From: a virus
Taxonomy: Duplodnaviria; Caudoviricetes
Strand: one strand, 5' to 3'
IMG/VR virus record: IMGVR_UViG_3300017996_000001
Span: 1-61,332 of that record
DNA length: 61,332 bases
A program made the position numbers and the translations under genes. Below the pieces are notes generated by a model, which saw only the letters and a program-made list of their open reading frames with translations, was not told where the DNA came from and did no database searches. The stretch's first letter is position 1. Each line of letters starts with the position of its first letter. This document shows positions 41,032-61,332 of the stretch, piece after piece.

Positions 41032-41050
41032 GATTCTGTGCCTCCTCGGC

Positions 41051-42359: not shown

Positions 42360-42446
42360 CAGGAGATAAGGGTCTCCAGAACCCATCAGAGCTTAAGGTG
42401 CTCAGAACCCAACAGGAGGATTTAAGGTCTCCCCAAGAAGACCCAG
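42360..42446 (-). promoter_or_regulatory. Three tandem hairpin units in the coat-gene leader
   Basis: TGGGT(T/CT)..CT spacer plus a stem with a CCTTA loop, three times. Confidence 0.6.
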
Positions 42447-42458
42447 ATGGCTAGCAAG

Positions 42459-43606: not shown

Positions 43607-43619
43607 AGCTGGGTTTCTC

Positions 43620-45934: not shown

Positions 45935-46060
45935 TCAGGTTCTCCCGATTCTCTTACAGCGTTTGCAGGTCCTATACCAGCCGTGGACTCCCTTTGGCTG
46001 AGTCCAGGCATGTAGCCCCAGCCAGCAACACAGTCTCCCTATCCAACGCCAGCGAGTCAC
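45935..46060 (-). CDS. 41-aa Cys/His peptide, DUF1660-like (not in the ORF track)
   Basis: GTGA overlap with the upstream stop; MTRWRWIGRLCCWLGLHAW...RTCKRCKRIGRT; its stop abuts the next GTG. Confidence 0.6.
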   Translation of the reverse strand: MTRWRWIGRLCCWLGLHAWTQPKGVHGWYRTCKRCKRIGRT

Positions 46061-46761
46061 AGGTGTCCCTCCACCTTCCAGGGATCATAGTCCACCGGAG
46101 TAAACTTGCTAGTCGGTGCGAGGGCCTGCAGTTGGGCCATCACAATTGCTGGATTTGGCTGTTGGGGGACCTCATCAGGGCTAGAGTACAACTGGTTAGC
46201 CGGCTGACCACCCGGCTGGCCGCCCAACTTGCTGCTGCTGGTGCCGGTACTTGGACTTGGGCTTGCCCCTGTGCTGCCCCGCAGGCTTGGCCATTGGCCC
46301 GCCAGCGCGCTATAGTCCACCTTTCCCGCCTGCTGGTCCGCTGTCAAGTCCCGTCCGGTCTGGTTCTTATAAGTAGTTTGCGCAAGGTCCCAGGCAGCCA
46401 AGTCTTGGTTCCTTGGGCTGAAGTCAGTGAGTCCCAACTTGCTGGCCTGGGCATCCCACGTACCAGCGAGAAATTGATATTTTCCAGCCGCTGTTGAGTA
46501 GAGCCCTGGCCTATCGGGAATCGAGACCTTAATTCTAGGGTGATCGGCAAAGGAATCGAATTGCTGGCCACCATATATGGTATGATAGTCCTGGCTCTCG
46601 CCCGACGAGATCTTGGCCAGGACGCTGTAAGCAGCTGGAGAAAGGCCTGAATCCGAAGTAGTAGTGGAACCCGAAGATGAAGGAGCAGCACCTTGTATCT
46701 CCCAACCAGTAGGAGTTAGAACCTGAGTATATCCATTAACTACTCGCGTCTGATCCATCAC
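46057..46761 (-). CDS. Lambda-R-like lytic transglycosylase, probably virion-associated
   Basis: ISSGES..YHTIYGG..F.SFADHP...STAAGKYQFL..TW...DFSP.NQD. Confidence 0.88.
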   Translation of the reverse strand: MMDQTRVVNGYTQVLTPTGWEIQGAAPSSSGSTTTSDSGLSPAAYSVLAKISSGESQDYHTIYGGQQFDSFADHPRIKVSIPDRPGLYSTAAGKYQFLAGTWDAQASKLGLTDFSPRNQDLAAWDLAQTTYKNQTGRDLTADQQAGKVDYSALAGQWPSLRGSTGASPSPSTGTSSSKLGGQPGGQPANQLYSSPDEVPQQPNPAIVMAQLQALAPTSKFTPVDYDPWKVEGHL

Positions 46762-49007
46762 TGTCCTCCACCCGGCGGCCGGCGCTGCTGTGCGAGCGGA
46801 GCGACATGGAGATACCTTCCTCTACGTGTCGGATCTGCCAAGTACCACTCTCCATCTGGGGCCTTCTGGGCCCCAGGAATTGGGGGAGGTTCATCAGGCT
46901 GAAGCGCTGGTTTCCCGACGTCATCTCCACCGAGCTGATTCTTGTTTGCCTCGACAATAGAATCAAGAGAGGTCTTGTGTGCATCGCCCACCAGCTGAGT
47001 TATCAGATCCTGCATTCCCTGAGGATCCAGCGGCAGTTGATCTTGCAGGGCCTTAATCCTATCGGTCTCGGCCTTGTAGACATCAATGTCTCGCATCTCG
47101 GACTTGCCCACGAGCTTCAGCCTGTCCTTCCCGTGCGCCTCCAGAGACTTAGTCAGTGCCTGAGTCAGCGCCTGGATCTGCTGCTGCATCTGCTGCTCAG
47201 CCTGGGTCGGACCATTTCCTAGTGCCTGCTGCGGTACCATTCGCCGTAGACGTGCTGCAGCTTCCTCAGCTTTATCAAAACCCATGCTGCTAAGCAGAAG
47301 ATCACCCACAATCGCGGTAAGCCCAGGGTTCTGTGTAAGAATGAGACCAAGCGCCTCGACGGTTTCCTCCCGCTTGGATTCATATGCTGGCCCAACCCCC
47401 GGTGCAACATCATACTTACCAAGTAGAGGATTGAAAACCCGAGAAACCACCACATTATTATGATCCATCTGCTGAGAGTAAGCTTGCTGGGCCGTAGGAT
47501 CGATAGTCATTTCGAGGTCAGTACCGTCATCAGCCAGAATACGCAGCACGCGGCGAGTATCGTAGACCATAGGAATCAGGTCAATAAGCTGGCGTGCCAG
47601 GTTGATCAAGGATTCTTCATATGAGTCCTGGAAATGATAGACCGCCGTGGCGCTCTGCTCCTGGCGCTTGCCAATCGCGGCTCCAGTCCTCTCATTCCCA
47701 ACCATCCCCATCTCATTCTGATACTGCCCAGACGTCATCATCATCTGGTTGAAGGCAGTCTCCATGGCAGCCTGATAGGCCGGGCTGGCAGTCGGGGGTG
47801 CAGTGCGGAATGGTGGTGGGACTACATTCCCCTCGTCGTCTAGATGGTTCCAGATCAGGACCGAGTGATTGGTCCTATTAGCTGTGTTCCACATAGACTC
47901 GAATTCCTCCACAGCGGCCGCCGGGGCGACCCAGGGAGTCTTACCTTGCAAGGCGGTAAACTCAACCTGGGCCGAGGCATTATAGTTATACATCCTCTGA
48001 GCGTCCTTCATCGCCCGAGTGTGACCCTTGCGATCCAGTATCCCCCCGATCACGGTCTCTTCCCCTAGGACTCGAATAAGGGGAATATACTTTCCTGGCC
48101 AGGTAGTCTTGTCAGCAATCTCCTCTCCAACGATAAGGAACCACTCAATCACTTCTCGCTGTACGTCCCTGATCTTAGTAAGTTTGTCCTCCTTCAGCTC
48201 ATCATACAGCTCCTTCGGCATCTTGGACTTCAACAACATATCGCGCTCACCAGAGTCGCTAATCCAACTCACCAGCTGATCATCGTCTAGGGTCTTGCGG
48301 AAGTACTCACAAATTCGCACATCATCCTTAGTCAACCAGTCGTCACTCACACTGGTGATGCCGAGGGGAGTCTGACTCAGCACTCCCTTATACTTTGGAT
48401 ACATGTCCTCGAATAAGTCCTTCGGCACGTTGTCAAACACAAATGCGTAGCGCATGTCACTGGCATCGCGCTGCTGAGTGTCAGGGTCCGCATAGATACT
48501 CAGCGGATCATTGACTGGGCGGATAAAGATTTCCTGATCAAAGCTGTCAGGGCCTGCATATTCAGTAACCAGTCTGAACCACCCAATGCCCCCATCGATC
48601 TGGAAATCTCTGGCAATCGTGAATGCTGACTGTGCATTGGATTGGTGCTCGACATGCCTGGCAATATCGCGCAGAGCATTAGCTGATTCCTGAGTTGCCC
48701 CGTTGCCGGTTGCGATGAACTTGACTGAGGACTTGTTTTTCTTTGCTGCATTAGAGATCTGCAAGTTATGCTGGCGAATGATATTCATCGTCAGACAGGG
48801 CTTCGCGGACTCATTCCTCTGAATCTTAATGTCGTTTGGCCACTGGTAGCCGTTCTCGCTATCTCCATGGCGGAACTTGAGATCATCCAGGAACCTAATC
48901 CGAGCCGTGCTTTCCCACTCGGAGCAGCGATCAAATCTCTTCCGAGCCTCTTGAATTACCGGATCCCCTGAGATTGTGTTCGGGGCCGGATCTGGATCAG
49001 CTGCCAC
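46758..49007 (-). CDS. Portal protein (P22-like)
   Basis: DLKF..G..YQWP...PCLTMN, WPGKYIP, KDAQRMYNY, YDV..GP.YES.REE. Confidence 0.93.
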   Translation of the reverse strand: MAADPDPAPNTISGDPVIQEARKRFDRCSEWESTARIRFLDDLKFRHGDSENGYQWPNDIKIQRNESAKPCLTMNIIRQHNLQISNAAKKNKSSVKFIATGNGATQESANALRDIARHVEHQSNAQSAFTIARDFQIDGGIGWFRLVTEYAGPDSFDQEIFIRPVNDPLSIYADPDTQQRDASDMRYAFVFDNVPKDLFEDMYPKYKGVLSQTPLGITSVSDDWLTKDDVRICEYFRKTLDDDQLVSWISDSGERDMLLKSKMPKELYDELKEDKLTKIRDVQREVIEWFLIVGEEIADKTTWPGKYIPLIRVLGEETVIGGILDRKGHTRAMKDAQRMYNYNASAQVEFTALQGKTPWVAPAAAVEEFESMWNTANRTNHSVLIWNHLDDEGNVVPPPFRTAPPTASPAYQAAMETAFNQMMMTSGQYQNEMGMVGNERTGAAIGKRQEQSATAVYHFQDSYEESLINLARQLIDLIPMVYDTRRVLRILADDGTDLEMTIDPTAQQAYSQQMDHNNVVVSRVFNPLLGKYDVAPGVGPAYESKREETVEALGLILTQNPGLTAIVGDLLLSSMGFDKAEEAAARLRRMVPQQALGNGPTQAEQQMQQQIQALTQALTKSLEAHGKDRLKLVGKSEMRDIDVYKAETDRIKALQDQLPLDPQGMQDLITQLVGDAHKTSLDSIVEANKNQLGGDDVGKPALQPDEPPPIPGAQKAPDGEWYLADPTRRGRYLHVAPLAQQRRPPGGGQ

Positions 49008-49116: not shown

Positions 49117-50427
49117 TCATCCCATCCACCCCAGTCCAGGATACTTATCCGAGAATTGATCTTTTACCTTACGAAGTTTTTCAACCAACTGGCTAGGGCC
49201 CTTCGGAGTCTTGAGCGCGAGGGCAAGTGTTGCGAAAGCATCTGCTCCATCGCTTGCCCAATCATGGACAGGCTCATTTGAGAGCTGGCCGTCCACGACG
49301 CGATAACGGTAATGCCTGAGGGCGCTGATTCCATCTGTACACTCTTCCTCGTCGAACCAACAATTTGGTAAAATGAGCCTGGCCGCATTAACTGAGTCAA
49401 CCTTGGCGGTTCTTGGGACAATATGGACACGGTAGCCAGCTCCTCGAATCATAGCCTCAATTGACTTTTTCTCTCCAAGTCTCTTCGCAGCGCCATCGTG
49501 AGGGAGGTACACAGTCCCATAGACATATTGCCGCGTCTGAAGTTCACGTAGATAGTGGGTGATGTCCTCGCCAGTTCCTTGGTAATAGGCCAAAATCCTA
49601 TACTGCATTGCGACTCGCTGCGCGAACCAAATAGCTGTAGCATCGGCGCGTCCCAGGTCCCAAAATGTATCAACGGGACAGGTACGGTCATAGGGAACAG
49701 TGCAGATACGACCCTCTTCCTGGCACTTGCGAAGCTCTTTAGCATAAACGGCACCCTCTAGCAACTGCAGACAGTGGCCTTCCCACACATTCAGGTAGTA
49801 GTCATGATCTCGCTTCTTGTCTCCTTCCATCTCCTCGCGGAGGACCTGGGGAAACCAGGGATTGTCTCGATAGGTCATCTTAATGACGATGGAATCGGAG
49901 GATTCCGAGATCTGGGCCGTGGCCTTAGCTAGCTCTGGATTCTTGATGAACCTAGTATAGGTATAGTCTGTATCTAGTTCTGGATTGAAGGTAATCCAGA
50001 TCTCGCTACCCGGCCGCCGGATGGTAGGAATGAGTGTGCCCCAGCTAGACCGCGAGACCTTATTTCCCTCCTCAACCCAACAATGTGTGATGCCCTCAAA
50101 GCTCTTAATCTTATTGACATTGTTCTTGATGCCAGCAAAGACAAATGTCGTTCCATTGGCTCCAATGATCTTGTCCTTCTGGACCTCATAGAAATTGCTT
50201 AATCCGAGAGCTTCGACCTGATCACTCAGGACCTTATGAACCGACTCGGAAATGGAATTCTGTAGTTCACGAGCGCAAAGTACTCGCAAAGCCTTCTCAG
50301 TTCCCAACAGCAGCAGCGCACGTGCTACTCCCCAAGACCTGCCAGCACCGCGGCCTCCATAGAGAATCTTGTATCTCTTAGGAGCGAAGAGGCACTGGAG
50401 CAGGTCAGGAAACTGTGCGTCAATCAT
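49117..50427 (-). CDS. terL: Terminase large subunit (PBSX-type)
   Basis: YGGRGAGRS, CARELQNSI, WVEEG, PTIR, FNP, WDLG, HD..SDGADA; ATG at 50427. Confidence 0.95.
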   Translation of the reverse strand: MIDAQFPDLLQCLFAPKRYKILYGGRGAGRSWGVARALLLLGTEKALRVLCARELQNSISESVHKVLSDQVEALGLSNFYEVQKDKIIGANGTTFVFAGIKNNVNKIKSFEGITHCWVEEGNKVSRSSWGTLIPTIRRPGSEIWITFNPELDTDYTYTRFIKNPELAKATAQISESSDSIVIKMTYRDNPWFPQVLREEMEGDKKRDHDYYLNVWEGHCLQLLEGAVYAKELRKCQEEGRICTVPYDRTCPVDTFWDLGRADATAIWFAQRVAMQYRILAYYQGTGEDITHYLRELQTRQYVYGTVYLPHDGAAKRLGEKKSIEAMIRGAGYRVHIVPRTAKVDSVNAARLILPNCWFDEEECTDGISALRHYRYRVVDGQLSNEPVHDWASDGADAFATLALALKTPKGPSQLVEKLRKVKDQFSDKYPGLGWMG

Positions 50428-50464
50428 GACTTCTTGCCGAGGACCTTGCCATGGGGGTTTCTCC

Positions 50465-50499
50465 AAAAAACGTGGGCCGGGGGGGCCGAAGCCCCCCAG
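50465..50499 (-). terminator. Intrinsic terminator upstream of terL
   Basis: GGGGGGC-TTCG-GCCCCCC followed by CGGCCCACGTTTTTT on the - strand. Confidence 0.7.
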
Positions 50500-50506
50500 A
50501 CTAGAC

Positions 50507-51883
50507 TTAGAGCGCCGCACTCCAGGTAAGGATGCTGCCGCCACCCGCGCCAACAAGAGCGCAAGTGTCGCCAGCAGTAAAGCCAGAGGCTACGGTGGCA
50601 ATCAGGCCGCCATACTGCGGAGTATTGCCGGTTTGCACTACCAAGAACGTAGTTGCCAGGGCAGTATTAGTGCCCGCCACACCCAACTTCCAAGTGCTGG
50701 TGCTCAGAGCCGTGCCGCTTGCGCTAAAGGTCGGTGCAGCCCGCATGGCCGCTGGCCACTGGAACTGGACCCAGCAGGTAGTCGTAGAAGCAGCATACCC
50801 CACAGCAACCTGCGCTGCCGTTGCCGGCTCCGCCACTGAGTACACGAAGTAGTTCTGCTGAGCCTGACTAGCCTGCAGCCCAATCGAATTGAAGGGCTGG
50901 ACGGGAGCACCAGTCCCAACTGCGCTGCCAGTCCCCGTCAGATAGCTCGCGGCATTGTCTACCGCCAGCTGGAGTCCAGCAAAGGCCACATAGTTGGTCG
51001 CTCCAGCTGTTGCCGTCGGGGTGAAGCAGACAGCCACACCAACCTCAGTTGCAGCCGCCGGCACAGTGCCATAGACTACATAGCGAGTCGGAGTAGTGCT
51101 GACAGTCAGTGCCTGGGCAACTGCGTTGGTCTGCCCAGACCATCCACTGGAGCCGCCGCCACCAGCATTCAGCCCATAGGCCATATTGACCGAGCCATTG
51201 TCACCGCCGGAGTCCTTTCCGTAGATGATATAGGCCGTAATCTGGCCATTGGTATCCGCAGCAAAGGTGGCATCCGCTGTGGCATAGAAGCTAAACTCCA
51301 GCGTGGAGCCAGCAACTCCAGCAGTAGTTGAAGCTAGAACTTCCTGCCCCATGCAAACCGGCACAAGTCCGGTCTGGCTCGCGGTTTCCGCCATCTTATA
51401 CGCAGTCGCAAAGCCAGTCGGCAGATCACCCGCAGTCGTGTCCTTGGACACAGTCATAGCCGTCGAGGTTCCAGACCACGCGAACCAATCCGAGTTCTGA
51501 TACTTGACTGCCGTCGTAGCACTAATACCAGCGGTACCGAACGGATAGGTGTTCTGAGTCGCGTCCCCAGCCACCAGCAGCTGAGCAGCACCGCTGGCTA
51601 CATAGTTAGCTGCGTATTGCCCCAGCTGTTGGACTGTGATTCCCTCGGTCTGGGGATTCTGACCATTCGGCAGCTGAGTATCGAAGCTGGCTCCCTCCTT
51701 GCCGGTCAGGGGAATCGTGCTTGGATACTGCACTCCTCCCGCAAACGGATACGGAGTCACAGTCCCACCCGTCAGAGTATTATTTATCCCTGTATTAGTC
51801 GTAAAGCCGCCGGCCCAAGCCGTAGCTCCTAGTCCAAGCGCTGCGCAGAATGCCAGCACTGACACCTTTGTCCTCGTCTTCAT
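50507..51883 (-). CDS. Exported fibre/CBM-like virion appendage protein
   Basis: Signal peptide ...GLGATAWA; jelly-roll-like region (AFAGLQL...MRAAPT); AAGGAG RBS. Confidence 0.7.
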   Translation of the reverse strand: MKTRTKVSVLAFCAALGLGATAWAGGFTTNTGINNTLTGGTVTPYPFAGGVQYPSTIPLTGKEGASFDTQLPNGQNPQTEGITVQQLGQYAANYVASGAAQLLVAGDATQNTYPFGTAGISATTAVKYQNSDWFAWSGTSTAMTVSKDTTAGDLPTGFATAYKMAETASQTGLVPVCMGQEVLASTTAGVAGSTLEFSFYATADATFAADTNGQITAYIIYGKDSGGDNGSVNMAYGLNAGGGGSSGWSGQTNAVAQALTVSTTPTRYVVYGTVPAAATEVGVAVCFTPTATAGATNYVAFAGLQLAVDNAASYLTGTGSAVGTGAPVQPFNSIGLQASQAQQNYFVYSVAEPATAAQVAVGYAASTTTCWVQFQWPAAMRAAPTFSASGTALSTSTWKLGVAGTNTALATTFLVVQTGNTPQYGGLIATVASGFTAGDTCALVGAGGGSILTWSAAL

Positions 51884-51946
51884 TTTCAGTCTCCTTCAGG
51901 GCACCATTGCCCTTGCTAGCATTCAGGCGCAAGCGCCAGAATTTCC

Positions 51947-53836
51947 TCAACATGATGCGTTATTATAGGGCACCGTGACATATTGTATATAGGAGTCAGG
52001 AGGAACTGGCCCCACCTGAGTTGTGCTCTGTGTAAAGGTATTTCCAAGGTGAGAGCATGCAGTTCCTACAAACGTATTCCCCGACACAATTCCTACTACC
52101 CCTGCCACATCTCCATACTGCGCACTGCTGTTGCCGAATATAGAATTTCCAGTCACAGCTACCTGAGTTCCAGCGGATGAGGCCACCCGAATTCCCTGGC
52201 AGGCAACACTCACCCCATTATTTGCTATCTGGTTTCCAGTCACCATCAGCTCGCTCAGGGTACCAAGCCCCTGGATTCCGCAGGCTGAGTTGCTGATAAC
52301 CTGGGTTCCAGTAATAGCTACCGAGGTATTATTAACCGAGAGGTGGATTCCGTCCCCAGTGTGGCTAGCGGCTGTGCTTCCAGCTCTACCAGTAACTGTT
52401 TGTCCAGCTCCTTGAAAGGACCCGCCAGAAATTGTATGCTGACTTCCGAAAGTGCTTAGAACTACCTCTCCTCCATTCCCTCCCCCATCATCCAAACCAA
52501 CTGCTCCGGTTAACTGAACTCCAGAGATCGGATTCCCGCTGGTTCCAACAAAGTGGAAACCTCCAGCAGTATTGGCCTGGGACTGCGGCCCATCCCAGTT
52601 GACTTGGATAGTTGACGTGCCAGCCCCTGCTCCTCCAATCCAATCATATCCCCAGCCGTTGTTGCCCTGGCTAAGGGTTCCATTCATAGCCCAGCGGAGT
52701 GGAATGGCACCAGTACTAGCACTAGCTGAGAATCCATCAGCATAGTTAAACTGAGCCACACATCCATTGCAGCTACTACCAGACGTAGACCCGAGGGTAA
52801 ATCCGTTGTTGTGATTGGCAGAGGTCACTCGATCAATAGTCATCCCAGACACACTAGTAGCCACACTAATGCCATCAGCCCCAGCGGAGGGAATTCCAAT
52901 CCGAGTAATGGAGAAGTCTGCAAGATGAATCCCAGCAGCAGCGGCCGCCGGGCAAAGCCCACTCACAGTACTGGAGTTAACCGTGATGGTGGTTTCAGAC
53001 TGCCCAGCTCCAAGCAAGTTAGTACCACTTGGAAGCACCAGGCAAGATGAGATAGTGAAGTTTCCAACTGGAAGGTAGACTGTGGAATAGTTCGTAATGC
53101 AAGATTGAATAGCAGCTGTGGAGTCATTAGTCCCTGTTGGGTCCGCGAAGCAATTCGCCACAGCATCCGTTGGTCCACCCTGAAATGCGCGAGAGACGCT
53201 TGAGTACCAAGTTCCAGGACTGCCACCATTAGTGGAAATGTAGACTGTCTGGCCAGTCTTGATCACTAGGGGTTGGCCCGCAGTCTGTCCCTGAAATGCA
53301 TCAGCACTTTGTGGGTTGACTGTTACATTTCCTCCCTGCTGGTTTGAAATCCAGAACCCAAAACCGCTGAATACCGTCGCGGCTACAGGCAGAGTATAGG
53401 CTATCGGTCCGGTGGCAATACGCTGGGTGAGCTGAAAGGCGCTTGTAACCGTAGTTGGACTTGAATCTGCGAATATCGGGAAGGACACAGTGCTAATTGC
53501 ATTTGAACTAGGCACTGGGACCTGAACTATCGTGTCCCAGATAGTATTGCCAAATTGGTCCTGCAGTACCTGGCGGTAGGTTCCTGTTCCCCAGATTATC
53601 GCTCGGCCGTTGGCATCCAGCCGGACTGGATTGGCATTAGCCGTAGTCAGGCCATTATCGAGATAAGTTGGTGCTGGGGTGGTAGTATTCGGAACATAGA
53701 AATAGACATACCCATTTGCATAGGGAACTCCATTCCCATCCGAGAATTGCTGCATTCCGTTGGGTAGCAGACTTTGGCCAGCGGCGAAGCTCACCAGACC
53801 TAGCCAAACCACCAACCCCAGCCACCAGGACTTCAT
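51947..53836 (-). CDS. Tailspike: signal peptide, P22-type head-binding domain and beta-helix
   Basis: MKSWWLGLVVWLGLVSFAAG-QSLLPNGMQQF.DGNG...NPVRLDANGRA.IW; DPTGTNDSTAAIQ...VYLPVG.F beta-helix cap. Confidence 0.85.
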   Translation of the reverse strand: MKSWWLGLVVWLGLVSFAAGQSLLPNGMQQFSDGNGVPYANGYVYFYVPNTTTPAPTYLDNGLTTANANPVRLDANGRAIIWGTGTYRQVLQDQFGNTIWDTIVQVPVPSSNAISTVSFPIFADSSPTTVTSAFQLTQRIATGPIAYTLPVAATVFSGFGFWISNQQGGNVTVNPQSADAFQGQTAGQPLVIKTGQTVYISTNGGSPGTWYSSVSRAFQGGPTDAVANCFADPTGTNDSTAAIQSCITNYSTVYLPVGNFTISSCLVLPSGTNLLGAGQSETTITVNSSTVSGLCPAAAAAGIHLADFSITRIGIPSAGADGISVATSVSGMTIDRVTSANHNNGFTLGSTSGSSCNGCVAQFNYADGFSASASTGAIPLRWAMNGTLSQGNNGWGYDWIGGAGAGTSTIQVNWDGPQSQANTAGGFHFVGTSGNPISGVQLTGAVGLDDGGGNGGEVVLSTFGSQHTISGGSFQGAGQTVTGRAGSTAASHTGDGIHLSVNNTSVAITGTQVISNSACGIQGLGTLSELMVTGNQIANNGVSVACQGIRVASSAGTQVAVTGNSIFGNSSAQYGDVAGVVGIVSGNTFVGTACSHLGNTFTQSTTQVGPVPPDSYIQYVTVPYNNASC

Positions 53837-53837
53837 G

Positions 53838-54050
53838 CTACTCTCCAGCAATCTTGCAGGCAGAAGACAGGGAACCTTTGCCTCCTGAGGTCTTATGTCG
53901 GATAGAGGTCATATGCTCAGTATCCCACTCAGGAAAGTCTGAAGCCTTCCGAGCAGTCCGAAGACCACTCTGCTCCGGATAGCAGTTGCCAAGACTTGGA
54001 CTCTGCTCCATGCCGGCAATTGCCTTAGTGCTATTAAGCTTTGCCATCAC
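53838..54050 (-). CDS. Small hypothetical late protein
   Basis: GGAGG RBS; packed. Confidence 0.6.
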   Translation of the reverse strand: MMAKLNSTKAIAGMEQSPSLGNCYPEQSGLRTARKASDFPEWDTEHMTSIRHKTSGGKGSLSSACKIAGE

Positions 54051-54060
54051 GAGTCCCTCC

Positions 54061-54339
54061 TTACTTGCAGCACGGCTTCATGCCGCTGAGCTTCTCGTGG
54101 CGAACATTAGCCGAGTCCTTCATCCCGCCATGCCCAGTAGCCTGACTGGTCGGATGCTCGCCATGCAGGACGCTGGAGGGCTTACCAATCGACAGCTTGG
54201 GGTCCGAGCCAGCTGCGGTCCTTCCAGCTAAGCCCCGAGTCTCATTCCCAACTCCGCCCATAGCTGGCGCCTGGCGGATATGCGCCGCAGGCTTAGAGGC
54301 ACTCGCAACTCGTGCCACTGGCATATTTCCTTTTCCCAT
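54061..54339 (-). CDS. Small basic disordered late protein
   Basis: AAGGAG RBS. Confidence 0.65.
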   Translation of the reverse strand: MGKGNMPVARVASASKPAAHIRQAPAMGGVGNETRGLAGRTAAGSDPKLSIGKPSSVLHGEHPTSQATGHGGMKDSANVRHEKLSGMKPCCK

Positions 54340-54374
54340 TTCAGTTCTCCTTGATTACAATCTAGTCCTTGATA

Positions 54375-54896
54375 CTATAATCCGTCGCTTGCTATCTGGC
54401 AAGACGCCCGAATACCCAAAATCGGATAATGTGTCTCAACCCGCGAGCCGCCTATCCAGTGCCATACACTTCGCGGGGCGTTTTCGATAGCCTCCCCGAG
54501 GTCTCCCGAGATCTTGTATCCTGTCATCCCAACTCTTAGCTTCTTAGCTACGACAACTCCTACTACTGGTCGTCCATAGACGCACCTAAGCACTGGCTCA
54601 TAGAGTGTCCTAAGCTCATCATGCGCACCAGTGGACCAAGTGTGCTTTGCTTCCAGTACCACGACATGACTAGGGGTAACTCGGATGAAATCCGGCTGAC
54701 AAAAGCCGCCTCCATTTCGGTCCTCAAATCTAAACCAGGGCCCAAATTCCCAGCTAGCATCCAGAGCTCTGGCAAGCTCCTTCTCGTACTTACAGCCAAG
54801 TCTCTTGGCTCCTCGGGGCCGACGGATGCCAGGCCAAGGACTAGTTTCTGATCTTTCTGCACTGACCAGTCCTACTATGATTCGTTTCACAGCCAA
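54375..54896 (-). CDS. PD-(D/E)XK nuclease (resolvase-like)
   Basis: YEKEL...QPDFI...VVLEAK. Confidence 0.7.
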   Translation of the reverse strand: MAVKRIIVGLVSAERSETSPWPGIRRPRGAKRLGCKYEKELARALDASWEFGPWFRFEDRNGGGFCQPDFIRVTPSHVVVLEAKHTWSTGAHDELRTLYEPVLRCVYGRPVVGVVVAKKLRVGMTGYKISGDLGEAIENAPRSVWHWIGGSRVETHYPILGIRASCQIASDGL

Positions 54897-55171
54897 GTTT
54901 TCCCAGTCACGAAGTGGTACAACAGTGAAATGGCAGTCCCAACTCCAGCTAGCAAAGCTGCAACTGCTATTGAAATAACTGAGTAGGTCACAGCATTTGA
55001 GGCAGACTCAGACAATTGTCGTAGCCGCCTGACGTGGTGAAAGTCAGCTCGAAGAGCTGCCATATCATCCTTGCTGTCAATATCCGTCCCAAAGGCCTGA
55101 AGCATGAACATGCGCACAGTATGCTCAGCTGCCTCATGAATATACTCCCTCATCTTGTCATCATCTGTCAT
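54887..55171 (-). CDS. Small membrane protein (C-terminal TM), lysis region
   Basis: Soluble N-terminus with one TM helix. Confidence 0.65.
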   Translation of the reverse strand: MTDDDKMREYIHEAAEHTVRMFMLQAFGTDIDSKDDMAALRADFHHVRRLRQLSESASNAVTYSVISIAVAALLAGVGTAISLLYHFVTGKTWL

Positions 55172-55431
55172 GACGCGGCTCCTTCATCCTCGACTCCAAA
55201 CAGATGGAGCACAATGGTAAGCTCAATCCCTCGCCTGTTTTGTGTATCCAACCGTCTAGCCCTCCAGATAAAGGCCTCTTCTAGCGCTGCCTTAACGTTT
55301 TCCAGCAATTCCTTGCGTTCACCGTTAGCAAGTAATGAAGGCTGTTGCGCCAACCTCTCGTAAAGTTTTGCTGGAATCTCAACCACTAGCCATTTTCCTT
55401 GCTGCCAGGAGTATAAGGCGTCATAGCCCAA
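55168..55431 (-). CDS. Hypothetical protein
   Basis: ATGA coupling downstream; start uncertain. Confidence 0.45.
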   Translation of the reverse strand: MGYDALYSWQQGKWLVVEIPAKLYERLAQQPSLLANGERKELLENVKAALEEAFIWRARRLDTQNRRGIELTIVLHLFGVEDEGAAS

Positions 55432-55655
55432 CCATTACTGAAGAAATGAACCGCCAGCGCGCCGGAAAACACTCCACAAATCCAGATCGCTAGCGGGAAC
55501 TTAAACCCGATTTCAGCAATGAAAAATGACAACGTATCAGAATGCCCATTAGCATCCGGATGCGCCAGCGCCCACCATTCAGTCCCAGTGAAAAACAAGA
55601 TAGAGCCCAGCAAACCTGCCAGCCAAACCCATCCAAGATTGAACTTTAGACTCAT
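55386..55655 (-). CDS. Two-TM membrane protein (holin candidate)
   Basis: Two hydrophobic helices; AAGGAGG RBS. Confidence 0.6.
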   Translation of the reverse strand: MSLKFNLGWVWLAGLLGSILFFTGTEWWALAHPDANGHSDTLSFFIAEIGFKFPLAIWICGVFSGALAVHFFSNGWAMTPYTPGSKENG

Positions 55656-55665
55656 TACAGCCTCC

Positions 55666-55740
55666 TTAGAGTAAATTAAGGTACAGAATCAGTCCAGCCA
55701 GGACCAAACCAGTCACAACTCCTGCAAAAAACTTAATCAC
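55666..55740 (-). CDS. 24-aa hydrophobic peptide (not in the ORF track)
   Basis: GTGA overlap; MIKFFAGVVTGLVLAGLILYLNLL. Confidence 0.55.
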   Translation of the reverse strand: MIKFFAGVVTGLVLAGLILYLNLL

Positions 55741-56249
55741 TTGAGTGCCGCCAAGGTCGCTGCGCCGGTCGTGATGCCCGTCACCATGTTAAGCAGCGTT
55801 AACTTCTGGAAATTCGCTAAGGCTGCGCAGCCGGTCATGAGAGGAGAATTCGGCTGGAACGCCACGATCAGGTCAGTTCCGATCTCGATGTCAACCGCGA
55901 GATGAAGCTTCGGCATCTGGTCGGCGGTTGGAAGCGTCGCGATCTGATTCACGAAGGTAAGAATCGGCTGGAAGCACGCCACCGTCATCGTATCGGGCGG
56001 AACGGCAACCCCCGCGAGTTTGATCGCCATTGTCAAATCCGCCGCCGCATCGGCAGTAACCCACGCCCGAACCTTGTCGATCATCTGATCAATCGAGAGC
56101 GACTTGTTACCGGTTCCATTGAGGTTCAGCGGATCGAATGGGAGGGGGATAGGGAGGCCGGCGACAGGCACGGGTGGCACCAGGTCTTTCGCCAGCGCTG
56201 GCCCCATGGCGAGCGCAAGACCAAATCCAGCGGCAAGAATTCGTTTCAT
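55737..56249 (-). CDS. Exported helical protein in the lysis cassette
   Basis: MKRILAAGFGLALAMGPALA; two Cys; GGAGG RBS. Confidence 0.7.
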   Translation of the reverse strand: MKRILAAGFGLALAMGPALAKDLVPPVPVAGLPIPLPFDPLNLNGTGNKSLSIDQMIDKVRAWVTADAAADLTMAIKLAGVAVPPDTMTVACFQPILTFVNQIATLPTADQMPKLHLAVDIEIGTDLIVAFQPNSPLMTGCAALANFQKLTLLNMVTGITTGAATLAALK

Positions 56250-56250
56250 G

Positions 56251-57003
56251 TCATCCTCCAGAGATTGCGGTCATGTAGCCCTGCAGGGCACTGACATCGA
56301 TGCCGCCGGGCGACTTAGCATTCGCGATCCACGCCGCCGGCAGGACAGCGTGAACCTCGTCGCAATATTTCAGAAACCACGTCCATGTTGCTTTCTTGAG
56401 GACGCCCCAAGTGATTACGGTAATATAGGTCTCATCGTAATCAACTAAGACTATACAGTGGCCGCCCCATCCCCCAGGCTCGCTTCCCGGCCCAGCGACA
56501 TAATCCCAAATATCCTGCGTCTGTGCATTGAGAGGCAGGGCGACGCCCAGGTAAAGACCAGGGAACAAGAACGCTCCCTGCTTCACATGATCGACATTCT
56601 GCGGCTCGACGGTCGCATGGCCGATAAGGTGTCGGCCAAGAATCCCGTGCGTCTGCCAGAAGTTGAGCACATCAACCTCGACGCCGCCCCGGTCTGTCGA
56701 AGGATCGGCCGGATTGTACCCGGTCGATGCCGAATAGAAGGCGATGACGTTCGCGGTCGAGGGATTGAAGTGCCGCGCCGTTTCCATGGTCGCGATTTCT
56801 TCAAGATGATAGCACCCGGCGGCAGTACAGTCGCCAAGATTGTCATTCCCAAGCATTCCCCAATCGGAGCGCCCTTGGGACCATGAATGCGCTGCGGGGG
56901 CCGCTGGGACAATATCAGCAAGGACCGACATCATCCGAGGCACGCGGTCGTCGATGCGCGCAGGCAGCTTCCCCAGCTTCATGAGCGAATGATCCACAGA
57001 CAT
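56251..57003 (-). CDS. Papain-like (C1-type) cysteine peptidase
   Basis: MLGNDNLGDCTAAG, GGHCIVLVDYD, ITWG, YCDEVH. Confidence 0.75.
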   Translation of the reverse strand: MSVDHSLMKLGKLPARIDDRVPRMMSVLADIVPAAPAAHSWSQGRSDWGMLGNDNLGDCTAAGCYHLEEIATMETARHFNPSTANVIAFYSASTGYNPADPSTDRGGVEVDVLNFWQTHGILGRHLIGHATVEPQNVDHVKQGAFLFPGLYLGVALPLNAQTQDIWDYVAGPGSEPGGWGGHCIVLVDYDETYITVITWGVLKKATWTWFLKYCDEVHAVLPAAWIANAKSPGGIDVSALQGYMTAISGG

Positions 57004-57005
57004 GA

Positions 57006-57425
57006 CTAGGCTCCTTTTGCTGGAATTGCCGCACCCGGCGACTGGGCCTGCAGCTTGCCGATCTTGGATAGAATCAGGTCTGCCATCTCAGTCTCAGCTT
57101 TTTCCTGTGTAAAGCCGAGGGCACTAATCTCGTTTGGAATCTTAGCTATAGCTTCACGGGCTAAATCTGCAATTACCGGGTCTCGTAAGTCCACTACCAG
57201 ATTAGACAGCGTTCCCGCCTGGCTAGCCCACCATTTTTCCGCCGCAGCCTCGGCTGCTGAGTGAAAAATAGCCCAAAACTGGTTCAGCAGGTCAAAATCC
57301 TGCTTACTTAAGTGTTTACTGAGTACCTGATATAGCAAATGGCTCAGTATTCCTAGGACGATAGTAACCATCCCAGTCAAAATCTGAACCAAAATCGGCC
57401 CAATTAGCACCAGAGTATCATGCAT
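57006..57425 (-). CDS. Holin-like protein (N-terminal TM with helical tail)
   Basis: Immediately downstream of the endolysin; one TM helix. Confidence 0.6.
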   Translation of the reverse strand: MHDTLVLIGPILVQILTGMVTIVLGILSHLLYQVLSKHLSKQDFDLLNQFWAIFHSAAEAAAEKWWASQAGTLSNLVVDLRDPVIADLAREAIAKIPNEISALGFTQEKAETEMADLILSKIGKLQAQSPGAAIPAKGA

Positions 57426-57435
57426 GACAGGCTCC

Positions 57436-57861
57436 TTAGGTTAGAAATTGGGCTCTCTCGGCCTTTCGGCGCCCCAACAGTTCTGCTGGATGGTCCCAAA
57501 GCAGAAAATCGTCAGCAGCAGCGCCCACATTCCCCTGATTGAACATCTTCACCGTGCTAGAGCTGGCAAATCCACCAACTCCAATATTAAAGCATAGTGA
57601 GCAGTAGGCATCGAACTGATTTTGGCTCATTGGCAGCCTGACAGCTCGATTTACCTCAGCCATTGTCGGCCCAAGATCTTGGCGCAGGATCTGGATTGCA
57701 TAGTCTCGAGTCCAGACTATACCATTTGAGACCCTAGGAGGGCTCATCCTTCCAGTATGCCCTACTCCAATGGTCAAAATTCCCCTTGAGTCACGATAGG
57801 CCTTGAGTATCAGGCCCTCGCGCTGCACGATAGCTTCTAGTCCTGCTTGGCTGATTTCCAT
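57436..57861 (-). CDS. Endolysin, GH24 lysozyme
   Basis: REGLILKAYRDSRGILTIGVGH (E-8-D-5-T), QNQFDA, FNIG, RRKAE. Confidence 0.93.
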   Translation of the reverse strand: MEISQAGLEAIVQREGLILKAYRDSRGILTIGVGHTGRMSPPRVSNGIVWTRDYAIQILRQDLGPTMAEVNRAVRLPMSQNQFDAYCSLCFNIGVGGFASSSTVKMFNQGNVGAAADDFLLWDHPAELLGRRKAERAQFLT

Positions 57862-57877
57862 ATCAGTATACTCCTAG

Positions 57878-59473
57878 CTAAAGACCGCATGGTTTGGTGA
57901 TCAGGCCAGAATTTTCGTAGATCGTCGTTCCACTAACACTGAGATAGACGATGCCTTTGAGATAGGGCGGATAGTCAGGATCCGACGCACATGCCGTGCT
58001 CGGCGGCTGGTAGCCCTTCCCGCTCGATCCCGAGACTGTCGGCGTCAGGTCATAAATCGGCGTGTTCGCCGTCGCCGACGACCCGTTCCATCCCATGCAC
58101 GCGACCGTCGTCGCATAGCCAGAACAGTTCGGCGCGCTAACCCAATTCGTCAGCAGATCACTGACATTGTTGAACGCCGCGCTTTCGTAGGTGTTCGTGC
58201 CGTAGCTCTCGCCGCCATAGGCCGTCGCGCTGTCGGTCGTGTCGCAGGAGCCGGATACGCAAGAACCGGAGATCGCCCAGAAGATATTTTGCGAATTGGC
58301 CGGGCTTGACCCCTGGTTGCCAAAGTTCGTGCCGGGGACGTTGCTACCGACCAGCAGCGCGTAAAGGGTCACGGCAGAGCCGTTATTCCCTTGATGAGCG
58401 TAATTTGTCTGCGCGATATTGTTGTAGATGTATGTCGTCCAAGGAATAGCCGTGCCGCTGGAGTTGTTTGTGTTGATCTCGCCGGCCGATCCTGTTCCGA
58501 TGTCACCAGCATATTGATTATTTGCATAAAATGTATTGTTGTAAATCTTTATGACCGGATTGCTGCTGTTGAAATTCTGGTAGAAGTAGTTAAACCCATA
58601 CCGCGCATTGTCCCATGCAATATTGTTCTTGGCGATACCTTGGCCGGTGTAGCCATGAGCGTCCCACGTGTCGAACATGAAACCCTCGCCGTCCGTGGCG
58701 CAATGAACGAGGCCGGCATAAGAAAAATTCTGCGACCAAAAAACATGCGTGCCGGTCGTCGAGTCTCCGATGAAGTTGGCCGGCCCCGGGTCGTCGATCG
58801 CCGCGACGCAAATCGGATCATTGTTCGCGTTGACGGCAATCGACCCTACTACGGCAAACTCATCGATGCCGTTGCCGGGAACATTGTGGTTCTTGCCGCC
58901 ATCTCCCGTGCCAAATCCATCGTGACTATTTTCAGAAATGTCATTGATGAACGCGATGTAATGATATTGCGTCGTTCCGGTCGCGGTGGCGTCCGCCAAA
59001 TAGGCGTAGCCCGTTGCGCCGGCAACCCATCCTTCTACCGCCCAATTATTTGCGGCGATGTCGAAGACGTTTCCGCTGGCTCCGGTATCAGAGCATGCGA
59101 AAGCGGTTTGGCAAACAACCGTCGCGAAATAGACGCCGCCTGTCCCGTCTATGCCGCCGGTCGTCGATGGACAACTGGACGCGCTTGTCGTGATGGCCAG
59201 AGAGCCACTGTAGGTTCCCGACTGAGCAATGATCACATCACCGCAGTTTACGGCATGATTAGGCGTACACCATGGCCCTGTCGATCCAGAGCCATGAGTT
59301 GTCTCCTTGCCGTCGTAGGAATCGCTGCACCCGCTTGACGCCATGTAATAGGGCACATCGCCAGTCGGCAGCGAAAAGATCGTCTGCGGCGCCGTTCCGC
59401 TCACAAGAATTAGCGTGTTTCCTTGCAGCAGCAAGCAACAAAGAGCAACGAATATACCGGCTATCTTCTTCAA
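57878..59473 (-). CDS. Cys-rich parallel beta-helix (polysaccharide lyase-like) protein with hydrophobic N-terminus
   Basis: YYM...SD...G....PWCT, GDVIIA.SGTY, NNIAWDN, IYNNTFY.N, YNNIA. Confidence 0.72.
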   Translation of the reverse strand: MKKIAGIFVALCCLLLQGNTLILVSGTAPQTIFSLPTGDVPYYMASSGCSDSYDGKETTHGSGSTGPWCTPNHAVNCGDVIIAQSGTYSGSLAITTSASSCPSTTGGIDGTGGVYFATVVCQTAFACSDTGASGNVFDIAANNWAVEGWVAGATGYAYLADATATGTTQYHYIAFINDISENSHDGFGTGDGGKNHNVPGNGIDEFAVVGSIAVNANNDPICVAAIDDPGPANFIGDSTTGTHVFWSQNFSYAGLVHCATDGEGFMFDTWDAHGYTGQGIAKNNIAWDNARYGFNYFYQNFNSSNPVIKIYNNTFYANNQYAGDIGTGSAGEINTNNSSGTAIPWTTYIYNNIAQTNYAHQGNNGSAVTLYALLVGSNVPGTNFGNQGSSPANSQNIFWAISGSCVSGSCDTTDSATAYGGESYGTNTYESAAFNNVSDLLTNWVSAPNCSGYATTVACMGWNGSSATANTPIYDLTPTVSGSSGKGYQPPSTACASDPDYPPYLKGIVYLSVSGTTIYENSGLITKPCGL

Positions 59474-60222
59474 TTCCCGGCCCCCGTGGTCGACAAATTA
59501 TGCCTAACAGCGGCGCCGCCTGTCGGCTCGAAAGAGACAATGATCGCCGACACATACTGGCTCGCGCTGGTGCCCGAATAGGTTAGCGCGCTCGTCCCGC
59601 TGTTGGTCTGGTATGACGAAATGAAACTTCCAGAGAGAGCGGAGGGGGTATTCGGCGGAGCGGTGCTCCATGTCCCCGAACCAGTAACCGCGATGGTGCC
59701 TCCGTTCGCATAGGCCACGCCAAAATATAACTCATTGGCAACCGCCGCACTTCCATTACCAGTCACGGTCCATGTAGTAGCATACGCGTTTGAAGATGTC
59801 GTTGTTGCGGTGTCTAAAGTCGCATATCCTGTGGTATAGACCGGAGACAGCGAGATATAAGTCGCCTGCGCGCCATCGCTCGCGGTGAAAGTTATGGTGT
59901 CTGTGCCGCCGGTCAGCGCATGCGTCGTGACGCAATAAAATATCTCGATCCATGTGCTTGTCGAAATGACCTGTGTCGTGATTTGATGGTAGCCGCTGCA
60001 ATTTCCTTGGCTGTCAGTCACTGTGTCGCTGGCGGGCCCCGACGAACCGCCGTTGTAAACCGGGACAACGATTAGAGCGCCTGCCGGCACTGTGGTCGCG
60101 GCGGTGACAACCGAAGTCGCCGAGTTGAAAGTAGCGGTGTCGCCAATATTCGTCACCGCCGCCTGTGCAGCAGCGCACCAAAGGCCCGCAATGATCGCGA
60201 GAGAGGCTAGAAGGCGGCGCAT
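59470..60222 (-). CDS. Exported beta-rich protein
   Basis: MRRLLASLAIIAGLWCAAAQA; TVTDSQGN; TAATG coupling. Confidence 0.7.
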   Translation of the reverse strand: MRRLLASLAIIAGLWCAAAQAAVTNIGDTATFNSATSVVTAATTVPAGALIVVPVYNGGSSGPASDTVTDSQGNCSGYHQITTQVISTSTWIEIFYCVTTHALTGGTDTITFTASDGAQATYISLSPVYTTGYATLDTATTTSSNAYATTWTVTGNGSAAVANELYFGVAYANGGTIAVTGSGTWSTAPPNTPSALSGSFISSYQTNSGTSALTYSGTSASQYVSAIIVSFEPTGGAAVRHNLSTTGAGN

Positions 60223-61295
60223 TACTGCGTCACCCAGACGATAACGCCAGCCAGAGGTCCAGCAGCGGAGGTAATCAGACAAAGATCATCGTTCGCGGTG
60301 GCGGTGGCCGCAACGTGCTGAGTGCCTCCATTCATGACAAAGCCCTGATTTGCCGCGAAGTTGAACCCGTTCGCCGCCGTCGCGCCGCCGATGACGCCGG
60401 CCGCACTGGTACCGCATGTCGTCGCCGTCGTGCCCTCGATTACCGCGACATTGTTCGCGATGGCAGTGAAAAGCGTCAGGCTGCACACATAGATTTTCTT
60501 GGCCGAGACACCCGTCGCGATCTTCGTAGTTGTCGCAGAGGTCATGCTAATCGGCGTGGTCGTCTGCGCATTGCCGGCGCATGGATCGACTTGAGGAATG
60601 GCCACGTTCGTTCCGCTGAGGCCCGCGCCGACGACGCCATTGCTGCCTGTGAAGGCCGCGGCATTGGCAAATCCGGTGATCCCGCCGCCGGAAATATACG
60701 TATTAAGCGCATTCGCAGTCGAAGCGATGACGTTCCCCGAGCCATCGACCACTTGGGTTTTCTGGCTGGCGTTGGTTTGATTGGCAGAGGTCGCCAGCGC
60801 CGACGTGTTCAGGTTTGTGCCTGCGTTCGCCGTCACCGTTCCGCTAACTCCCCAAGTCGCGGCGGTCGTCGGGGCGACGAAGAGGCCGTTGGTCGCAGAT
60901 AAGACGCTGCCGCCCTGAAGCAGATTGCCGATATTGCCAGTGCCCGTGCCGAGGACGAAGGTTGCGCCAGTGCCCGGCGAGAAGAACAATGGGTTCCCCA
61001 CCGCATTCACCGCACCAGCGATCCAAGGCGTTGCGATCCATGGCCCCGAAGCCGCCGCGGCGCCCTGGTCCACGGTGAAGTTGTGATCGCTGCCGATCGC
61101 GAGACCGTTCGCGCCAGCCGAGTAATCCCAGAGGGAGAACTGCCCCAAGGAATTCCCGCCGCCGTTCGTGGTCGTCTGGTAGGTCGTGCAGCCAGCGGAA
61201 CATGGCGTTGCTGCGAATGTCCCCGATCCGGCCAGCGCAGGCGATCCTAGCCCGACTAGCGCGAGTGCAAGGCAAAGATACCTGAGCGCTTTCAT
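60222..61295 (-). CDS. Exported fibre/decoration-like protein
   Basis: MKALRYLCLALALVGLGSPALA; VSGTVTANAGTNLNTSALA shaft; C-terminal beta-domain KKIYVC. Confidence 0.72.
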   Translation of the reverse strand: MKALRYLCLALALVGLGSPALAGSGTFAATPCSAGCTTYQTTTNGGGNSLGQFSLWDYSAGANGLAIGSDHNFTVDQGAAAASGPWIATPWIAGAVNAVGNPLFFSPGTGATFVLGTGTGNIGNLLQGGSVLSATNGLFVAPTTAATWGVSGTVTANAGTNLNTSALATSANQTNASQKTQVVDGSGNVIASTANALNTYISGGGITGFANAAAFTGSNGVVGAGLSGTNVAIPQVDPCAGNAQTTTPISMTSATTTKIATGVSAKKIYVCSLTLFTAIANNVAVIEGTTATTCGTSAAGVIGGATAANGFNFAANQGFVMNGGTQHVAATATANDDLCLITSAAGPLAGVIVWVTQ

Positions 61296-61332
61296 TTCAA
61301 ATCACTCCTATGACGACGAGTTGGCATGAATA
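61210..61332. repeat. Terminal direct repeat, copy 2
   Basis: Identical to 1-123. Confidence 0.97.

Follow-up and report, generated by a model that had tools for sequence, protein, structure and literature searches.

A late gene block with Sec-type leaders

The window analysed here is the whole stretch of 61,332 nucleotides (nt) of IMG/VR virus record IMGVR_UViG_3300017996_000001 (Duplodnaviria; Caudoviricetes), and our subject is a block of its late genes, a tailspike gene among them, whose products begin with Sec-type signal peptides (called leaders below). Bases 1-123 (no strand) are identical to 61210-61332, the record is classed as having direct terminal repeats, and the true circle is 61,209 bp. 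Since this identity is an assembly overlap, the late block runs unbroken over the junction, as an earlier interpretation made from the letters alone (the sequence-only reading) had proposed. The genome is that of a complete circular podophage, P22-like and lytic. Replication genes occupy the plus strand from about 12.5 to 31.9 kb (helicase, exonuclease, Sak4-like annealase, ParB-methylase fusion, family A polymerase in two open reading frames (ORFs), primase). The remainder is one long minus-strand late operon, which runs from about 12195 down to 88, over the junction, and then from 61295 down to 31879. A P22-like morphogenesis module, with ejection-type proteins reaching 31879, makes up the downstream half of this operon. 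No integrase was seen among the genes scanned, and a tRNA scan found no tRNA genes. The leader genes and the edge of their block are as follows (aa, amino acids; Cys, cysteine).

6835-9663, minus strand: SP942, fibre-like, 16 Cys; starts with GTG, in overlap with the stop of gene 9660-10262 upstream
4071-5495, minus strand: SP474, no assigned function, no family match, 4 mature Cys
2953-4074, minus strand: SP373, no assigned function, no family match, 6 mature Cys
494-2953, minus strand: SP819, like a clan GH-A glycoside hydrolase (GH) by its ESM Atlas neighbours, 12 Cys
88-240, minus strand: ORF of 50 aa, N-terminus leader-like, 2 Cys; over the junction its stop adjoins the SP357 start
60222-61295, minus strand: SP357, 6 mature Cys; nearest clusters viral
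59470-60222, minus strand: SP250, no assigned function, placed here by its leader score, 2 mature Cys
57878-59473, minus strand: SP531, 14 mature Cys; TTG start without a clear Shine-Dalgarno sequence, no family or PDB match
55737-56249, minus strand: SP170, 170 aa, no assigned function, 2 Cys; adjoins the lysis genes
51947-53836, minus strand: SP629, tailspike preprotein with leader, head-binding domain and pectate-lyase-like beta-helix, 10 mature Cys
53777-53836, minus strand: leader of SP629, residues 1-20, ending A-A-G before Gln
53513-53776, minus strand: head-binding domain of SP629, residues 21-108, from profile, AlphaFold 2 (AF2) model and Foldseek
50507-51883, minus strand: SP458, carbohydrate-binding protein like carbohydrate-binding module (CBM) families 4/16/22; core gene, directly upstream of terL
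49117-50556, minus strand: terL, terminase large subunit (phrog_3717, E 1.9e-60), the downstream edge of the block

All eleven ORFs are present at these coordinates, and all on the minus strand. The leaders were scored with a heuristic of our own for n-, h- and c-regions, which is not SignalP. By this score a Sec-type leader is found in exactly 10 of the 70 ORFs of at least 150 aa in six frames (scores 30.5-41.7, the next best being 20.5), and these are the same ten large genes that the sequence-only reading had named; the 50-aa ORF scores 44.5. When the length limit is lowered to 40 aa (508 ORFs in all), scores of 30 and above are otherwise reached by just three short antisense ORFs and an 89-aa membrane-like ORF (55386-55655). 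The leaders have a basic n-region, an uncharged hydrophobic h-region of about 7-18 residues and small residues at -3/-1. Portal, scaffold, coat, adaptor, hub and ejection proteins and all early genes score nil or low, and the claim that the first five have no leader is thereby confirmed at the level of the heuristic. A single block of about 20 kb, from 9663 to terL, contains all ten genes, packed tightly or overlapping, with a phage lysozyme, a holin-like protein and several small ORFs interspersed. The block had been placed between terS and terL. The terL edge stands. For terS, the candidates 11854-12195, 10719-11774 and 9660-10262 gave no Pfam match, and the latter two no PHROG match either.

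Could the true starts lie downstream of the leaders, as the sequence-only reading had asked to be checked? Strong Shine-Dalgarno sequences of the GGAG/AGGA type stand 4-10 nt before 8 of the 10 leader-including starts, while the SP250 start has only GGTG and the SP531 start has none. The in-frame starts just past the leaders have no strong Shine-Dalgarno sequence, and two of them have a weak GGGA or GGTG. The leader-including starts are thus favoured, and wrong start codons were rejected as an explanation. As to the type of signal, the twin-arginine motif (S/T-R-R-x-F-L-K) occurs in none of the ten leaders (SP250 has R-R-L-L only), and a lipobox with Cys at +1 in none of the eleven proteins. 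An all-against-all BLASTP comparison found no paralogy among the eleven. Moron-type exclusion or conversion proteins, such as Bor and Lom of lambda or Llp of T5, are small outer-membrane proteins or lipoproteins expressed from the prophage or early. The present proteins do not fit this class, being of 170-942 aa, free of a lipobox and encoded in the late operon of a genome with its own replication genes.

Even cysteine numbers in the mature proteins

Most leader proteins had been described as containing several Cys. The counts are as described, and moreover the number of Cys is even in the mature part of all eleven (16, 4, 6, 12, 2, 6, 2, 14, 2, 10 and 4, in the order of the list). For the other late ORFs of the genome with at least one Cys, the number is even in 10 of 22. 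In related loci (see below) it is even in 68 of 74 leader proteins with Cys versus 100 of 218 leaderless ORFs (Fisher p 2e-13), where the ORFs were taken by a greedy longest-ORF rule and the leaderless class includes some non-genes. The same difference is found among the best 150 members of the head-binding-domain family, with 59 of 69 in the leader class versus 25 of 61 in the leaderless class (Fisher p 1.4e-7). Fully paired disulfides would give such even counts, and disulfides require an oxidising compartment. The signature would therefore support, indirectly, an oxidative folding of exported proteins, and it is hard to explain otherwise.

The particle module (31879-49007, minus strand) is Cys-poor. 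Nine of its 19 ORFs have no Cys, and 9 of the ten with Cys have an odd number, the mirror image of the leader proteins.

SP629 is a P22-type tailspike

Scans of the ten large proteins against PHROGs, Pfam and NCBIfam gave matches for SP629 only. Its leader scores 31.7, with GGAG 6 nt before the start, and its Pfam matches are PF12708 (40.6 bits, cut-off 27) and PF13229 (29.9 bits, cut-off 25.9). The profile of its N-terminal domain matches 7EEQ_A, 'Tailspike head-binding domain' (E 1.9e-6), and also tail spike chains of 9VYG; an excerpt of PMC13730344 assigns 7EEQ to phage Pam1. The AF2 model of the domain has a predicted local distance difference test (pLDDT) value of 80. Its top Foldseek matches are the Pan3 tail complex, the Pam1 tail machine and then the P22 head-binding domain, isolated and in situ (9VYG, 7EEQ_A and P22 entries 1LKT/2VKY/8TVR), with query-normalised template modelling (TM) scores of 0.62-0.75 overall, 0.62-0.75 to 9VYG/7EEQ and 0.67-0.72 to P22. 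Searched with a hidden Markov model (HMM) of the domain, the window yields SP629 as its single match. Across relatives, the first 90 mature residues are 50-64% identical and the remainder diverges, which in sequence terms is the classic pattern of a virion-docking module. The domain is about as conserved as the head-tail adaptor (50-64% vs 51%). SP629 is thus, by sequence and fold, a P22/Pam1-type tailspike, and the sole one in the genome.

The known tailspikes of this type (P22 gp9, Pam1, Pan3) have, like SP629, an N-terminal head-binding domain followed by a right-handed beta-helix, and the P22-like module of portal, adaptor, nozzle and ejection proteins is also found in this phage. Unlike them, SP629 has a 20-residue Sec-type leader and 10 mature Cys, and its gene lies upstream of terL, whereas the P22-type position is after the ejection genes. 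The adaptor is an expected docking partner. Such domains contact adaptor and nozzle in the related cyanopodophage A4, as stated in an excerpt of PMC12002296. A complex prediction of three head-binding domains with the adaptor scored 0.00 and speaks neither for nor against binding.

Leaders in related phages

How widely are the leaders conserved? GenBank phages yielded no megablast match to the structural module or to the leader block. At the protein level, the coat shares 58% identity with its counterpart in Pseudomonas phage PAE2 and 41% with the one in Acetobacter phage phiAX1. Ten close relatives (group A) carry the SP458 gene directly upstream of terL, with coat proteins 80-87.5% identical where covered. 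A second lineage (group B) has epsilon15/BPP-1-like coat proteins, and there the SP458 gene lies inside the structural module. The metagenome-assembled genomes (MAGs) matched by SP458 relatives are those of Rhizobiales, Bradyrhizobium and Hyphomicrobiales. In answer to the survey of homologues that the sequence-only reading had called for, a leader and an even number of Cys are kept in 23 of 23 SP458 proteins (22 homologues and the query), where the leader sequence drifts and the mature N-terminus and the C-terminus are conserved. The head-binding-domain HMM finds one ORF in each of six group-A loci. The leader abuts the domain in 5 of 6 orthologues (the window and five loci with a complete ORF; one further ORF, cut at the end of locus L008, was left out of the count), and the sixth, in L018, starts directly with the domain.

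It may be asked whether wrong starts, a chimeric assembly or chance hydrophobic N-termini could imitate such a block. The TTG start of SP531 without a Shine-Dalgarno sequence and the home-made score are in favour of such an artefact. Against it are the gap in score (at least 30.5 vs at most 20.5), the leaders kept in 23/23 and 5/6 homologues, the same block upstream of terL in 10 related contigs, the tight packing and overlap of the genes, and the parity statistics, which hold. We regard this explanation as close to refuted.

The head-binding-domain profile reaches far beyond these relatives, to 26,134 cluster representatives at E <=1e-3 and 761 at 1e-30. Among the best 150 of the 26,134, 80 have a leader, 66 do not and 4 are ambiguous. 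In 64 of these 150 the domain starts before residue 10 and in 66 at residues 20-34, a bimodal pattern. Relative to the domain, 78 leader-bearing relatives are enriched in A(-6), A(-4) and Q(-3), that is, in an A-x-A|Q site at a fixed distance. The leaders are thus real and conserved, with a conserved cleavage motif, and by this conservation and by the Cys parity they look functional. This bears on the idea that the hydrophobic N-termini are uncleaved signal anchors, which would keep the proteins tethered to the periplasmic side of the inner membrane up to lysis, as happens with signal-arrest-release (SAR) endolysins. Some leaders are indeed long or have a weak c-region, for example those of SP531 and the 50-aa ORF. 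The A-x-A followed by Gln, which keeps a constant spacing to the domain in 78 homologues, argues against anchors, as do h-regions of ordinary signal-peptide length, and a retained N-terminal helix would probably sit at the docking end. We therefore consider signal anchors very improbable.

On a tree of the domain, the leader state requires at least 22 changes, versus 38-57 in 500 label shuffles (FastTree on 85 domain columns, a weakly resolved tree). The trait is clustered but labile. Thirty-six GenBank phage records contain the domain, and six examined homologues all start with it and are leaderless: the 'bacteriolytic protein' of Ralstonia phage P4282, an unannotated ORF of PAE2, the tail spike of PBR31 (whose gene comes after an internal-protein gene), a homologue in P26218, the tailspike of X14 and a metagenomic 'colanidase'. 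The PAE2 ORF (OK041467.1, 5956-8001 of the locus, plus strand) has 681 codons and begins with the domain, and short minus-strand ORFs are annotated in its place. The P4282 protein (AB048798.1, 310-2373) also starts with the domain, at 54.7% identity, and for this reason it is probably a tailspike or depolymerase, judging by sequence, and not a lysis protein.

In group B the N-module is a different one, but the pattern is alike: five leader proteins from three loci are 42-69% identical over their first 120-250 residues and then diverge. Two of these genomes (L025 and L037) each encode two adjacent leader-bearing giants with a common N-terminal module (69% over about 250 residues in L037) and divergent remainders. 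They look like paired tailspikes on one anchor.

Other leader proteins

SP458 has at least 215 homologues of very similar length. Its AF2 model is of middling confidence (pLDDT 66) and predicts a jelly-roll beta-sandwich (Foldseek E 5e-5), for which VIA gives Z 13.9 to CBM4-2 and 13.4 to TSP4 of phage CBA120, with further values of 12.9 and 11.9, over residues of about 96-310. The sandwich resembles C-terminal modules of CBA120 TSP4 and of a Klebsiella phage fibre. On the model, SP458 is a predicted CBM-type lectin. Its mature N-terminal residues 25-95 are among the best conserved of the family, yet their pLDDT is below 50; such a segment would be expected to fold only on a partner. In GenBank phages, tblastn detected nothing similar to SP458 or SP942 at E 1e-3. 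Relatives in viral contigs were likewise missed with the single SP458 sequence and came up in the alignment-based search.

SP942 has fibre repeats in common with 74 other proteins, some of which contain PF13884 (endosialidase-chaperone) or PF12708 (pectate-lyase). At least 29 of these 75 have leaders, with even Cys in 26 of the 29, and the others begin like ordinary leaderless fibres. From the shared repeats, a role as virion appendage is plausible. The N-terminal part of SP942 is conserved in L010 and L018. The ESM Atlas neighbours of SP819 are GH5/GH39/GH42-like (feature score 0.89, TM 0.52-0.57), while Pfam, NCBIfam and PDB sequence searches gave no match; its likeness to a free clan GH-A glycosidase is a lead only. 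For SP357, none of the 30 nearest ESM Atlas clusters has a Pfam family, and the members of the three top clusters shown are all (100%) viral. SP531 may be beta-helix-like, judging its sequence by eye. PDB sequence searches with SP819, SP531, SP942 and one group-B leader protein had no match.

The name 'virion appendage' given to the whole block by the sequence-only reading therefore suits a part of it. By sequence and fold it holds for SP629 and it is plausible for SP942, it seems not to suit the glycosidase-like SP819 or the predicted lectin SP458, and five genes have no assignable function. The alternative offered at the same time, released depolymerases, probably applies to a part of the block as well.

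A possible route of the tailspike to the particle

We lean, though only slightly, to the reading that the late proteins of this P22-like podophage which bind receptors or act on glycans are made as Sec preproteins and that the exported tailspike later joins the particles. Export and oxidative folding of the leader proteins are well supported by the sequence features; export, cleavage and disulfides themselves are what we infer from them, with the even Cys numbers as indirect support. That SP629 is exported and then added to particles is a serious possibility. The particle and lysis genes concerned are the following.

46758-49007, minus strand: portal, leaderless
42773-43660, minus strand: scaffold, leaderless
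41051-42274, minus strand: coat, leaderless
39250-40011, minus strand: head-tail adaptor (phrog_12985 and phrog_637), leaderless, 51% identity in relatives
37314-38804, minus strand: nozzle/hub protein (PHROG name 'head closure Hc3'; phrog_578, E 6.6e-90), leaderless
57436-57861, minus strand: endolysin, a phage lysozyme (PHROG 7; PF00959 over residues 13-135), without an N-terminal membrane segment
57006-57425, minus strand: holin-like membrane protein (weak PF09682 match, E 0.0039)
5963-6589, minus strand: leaderless protein of 208 aa (phrog_394 and phrog_4492), both termini tail/tail-fibre-like

In the proposed route, each protein would be translated from its leader-including start, pass unfolded over the inner membrane and be cut by signal peptidase I at the AxA-type site. 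It would then fold in the periplasm, where the paired Cys would form disulfides. Capsids with portal, adaptor, nozzle and ejection proteins would be built in the cytoplasm from the leaderless, Cys-poor proteins. Since SP629 would be exported and its head-binding domain begins a few residues past the cleavage site, it would meet the particle either in the lysate or once the inner membrane has been opened by the holin, not earlier, and would then dock on adaptor and nozzle as free tailspikes do. The plausibility of such an attachment is raised by two known facts, that canonical holins make very large lesions and that P22 tailspikes bind spikeless heads spontaneously in vitro. Moreover, as the lysozyme has neither signal nor anchor, established lysis biology requires a hole-forming holin, and for such a cytoplasmic enzyme a holin of large lesions is implied. 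The other exported proteins would have mixed fates: SP942, and perhaps others, would be further appendages, while SP458, SP819 and probably SP531 would be free periplasmic or released enzymes and lectins acting on the surface polysaccharide of the host.

Points against this reading, and other fates of SP629

A number of findings weigh against this reading. The close relative L018 (coat 87.5% identical) has a leaderless tailspike orthologue, so the leader is not needed for a working tailspike, and the trait is labile, as noted above. Among 304 genomes searched of the presumed host order, the domain occurs in 6 of 301 genomes of the order of the SP458-bearing MAG and in 1 of 3 MAGs; all 7 are leaderless, and these matches gave no host. 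For 5 of the 10 large leader proteins the PHROGs, Pfam and NCBIfam scans gave no assignable function. The home-made score counts here too, and so do an exported bacterial enzyme and a leaderless fibre-like gene that are taken up below. Finally, the case for export, cleavage, disulfides and presence on virions is built on sequence and models.

Then may SP629 have two fates? Most of it could be exported as a free depolymerase, while the virion would receive either a leaderless isoform or molecules that were never exported and folded in the cytoplasm. Met28 of SP629 is in frame and lies at the start of the conserved domain, where leaderless homologues begin (3-10 residues before the same motif), and leader-state switching is frequent in the family. 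However, neither Met28 nor the other post-leader starts are preceded by a Shine-Dalgarno sequence, the even Cys numbers imply an oxidising compartment for the functional fold, and internal starts close to the cleavage site are absent from SP458 and most other leader proteins. Two fates seem to us improbable.

A further explanation is that all leader proteins, SP629 included, are exported free enzymes and lectins which never become part of the particle, and that the virion uses another receptor-binding protein, for instance the leaderless 208-aa protein. By trimming or binding capsule, exopolysaccharide (EPS) or O-antigen, whether from outside the cell or from the periplasm, such proteins could aid release, destroy receptors on the cell and on debris, or block superinfection. 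The glycosidase likeness of SP819, the CBM of SP458 and the lysis genes inside the leader block agree with this. The 208-aa protein, from its sequence, could be a virion-bound adaptor or short fibre, and thus the receptor-binding protein or adaptor of the virion; a PDB sequence search with it had no match. Signal peptides were reported in 3261 of 64,678 prophage carbohydrate-active enzymes (CAZymes), about 5%, and read as secretion of 'auxiliary' enzymes (PMC13507307, in excerpt). A precedent is WceF of Pantoea stewartii (PDB 6TGF), described in an excerpt of PMC7949094 as a trimeric beta-helix glycanase that resembles tailspikes and has a P22-like head domain; it is exported with a cleavable signal, cleaves EPS and is not a virion protein. 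It is also among the Foldseek matches of the SP629 domain (rank 18, E 0.066). WceF means that a head-binding fold together with an export signal is no proof of virion attachment. The two genes differ in setting: WceF is chromosomal, in an EPS cluster, and has a signal for twin-arginine translocation (Tat), whereas SP629 has no twin-arginine motif and belongs to a lytic phage without another tailspike. Its place between the lysis genes and terL of a complete lytic phage genome also does not suit a WceF-like bacterial EPS enzyme. Against free enzymes throughout stand three further points. The phage has a P22-type adaptor and nozzle, and no head-binding-domain gene apart from SP629; the domain of SP629 is as conserved as the adaptor, which is unexpected for a vestigial domain; and leaderless GenBank phage homologues are annotated as tailspikes and lie in the tailspike position. 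We judge the explanation by free enzymes alone to be unlikely, though it is the main rival.

Comparison with known systems

Is an exported tailspike without precedent in tailed phages? We know of no tailed phage that exports a tailspike or fibre, and to our knowledge tailed-phage particles, with their fibres and spikes, are taken to assemble in the cytoplasm in every studied case. Tailspikes, CBMs and exported phage lysis proteins are already known, and a Sec leader on the tailspike or fibre of a tailed phage was not found in print (only titles and the starts of abstracts were screened); the prophage CAZyme figure cited above is the nearest published statement. Coat proteins of filamentous phages use Sec signals. 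Like the leader proteins here, these coat proteins, the SAR endolysins and the T4 antiholin RI are late proteins with N-terminal signals for passage into or across the inner membrane, but they are lysis regulators or enzymes, or parts of extruded, membrane-assembled virions. The signal of T4 RI is reported to be cleavable (PMC8385771).

SP819, SP629 and SP458 would be scored as CAZymes of soil viruses, the so-called auxiliary metabolic genes. Unlike typical viral CAZymes, they belong to a late-operon cluster with one virion-docking domain and with leaders that go along with the even-Cys signature; these features speak for functions in the infection cycle rather than in host carbon metabolism. 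Phages with many depolymerases (K1-5/SP6, CBA120 and phiK64-1 types) have branched receptor-binding complexes, with many unrelated glycan-acting proteins beside a small adaptor-like protein. The small adaptor-like protein here would be that of 5963-6589, with its tail-protein N-terminus. The spikes of those phages are leaderless with conserved N-terminal adaptor domains, whereas here each protein has a leader and only SP629 has a recognisable docking domain.

How general may the route be? Our tentative proposal, which we hold with somewhat more doubt than belief, is that a large uncultured share of P22-like and epsilon15-like podophages sends tailspikes or fibres via Sec, with disulfide maturation in the periplasm and mounting on DNA-filled particles after holin opening, that is, a two-compartment assembly. 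Such a pathway, if proven, would be new in kind. A leader is present on the P22-type tailspike in about half of the 150 nearest of more than 26,000 representatives and in none of the six GenBank homologues examined. Should virions carry the exported spike, a branch of phage assembly would run through the periplasm, and disulfide bonding would offer a way to make receptor-binding proteins hardier. Infectivity would then depend on the Sec, signal peptidase and Dsb functions of the host, and holin triggering and lysis timing would become a step of morphogenesis. If the spike is not on the virion, these phages export a large arsenal of enzymes and lectins, encoded by about a quarter of the genome and acting on the host surface during infection, and the interpretation of 'auxiliary' carbohydrate-active genes of soil viruses would change. 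Either way, gene callers and predictors of receptor-binding proteins that assume leaderless tail proteins would misfile the class.

Further observations

Some leader proteins of relatives depart from the types found in the window. In L002, a leader protein (3341-4090) has an R-R-R-F n-region and is Tat-like, and a leader-like ORF (12179-12934) follows the homologue of 40015-40497, where the window has the adaptor gene. As to the lipobox, one protein of L008 has L-S-S-C.

Within the head module of the window, a 234-aa protein (46057-46761, minus strand) between the portal and a 658-aa orphan has PHROG matches to metallo-endopeptidase, lysozyme and tail fibre, and on these matches it may be a virion-borne cell-wall hydrolase. 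A 195-aa protein (36340-36927, minus strand) has 9 Cys in an otherwise Cys-free tail/ejection module, with weak 'hydrolase' PHROG matches and no Pfam match. Among the replication genes, the ORF at 24269-25747 (plus strand, 492 aa) joins a ParB-like nuclease/partition N-terminus to a DNA methyltransferase C-terminus. The family A DNA polymerase is split on the plus strand: the first ORF (26731-27900) has a uracil-DNA-glycosylase-superfamily domain and a weak 3'-5' exonuclease match, and the polymerase domain itself is in the second (28338-29939). Between them lies a 135-aa DUF7768 ORF (27940-28347, plus strand), which overlaps the second.

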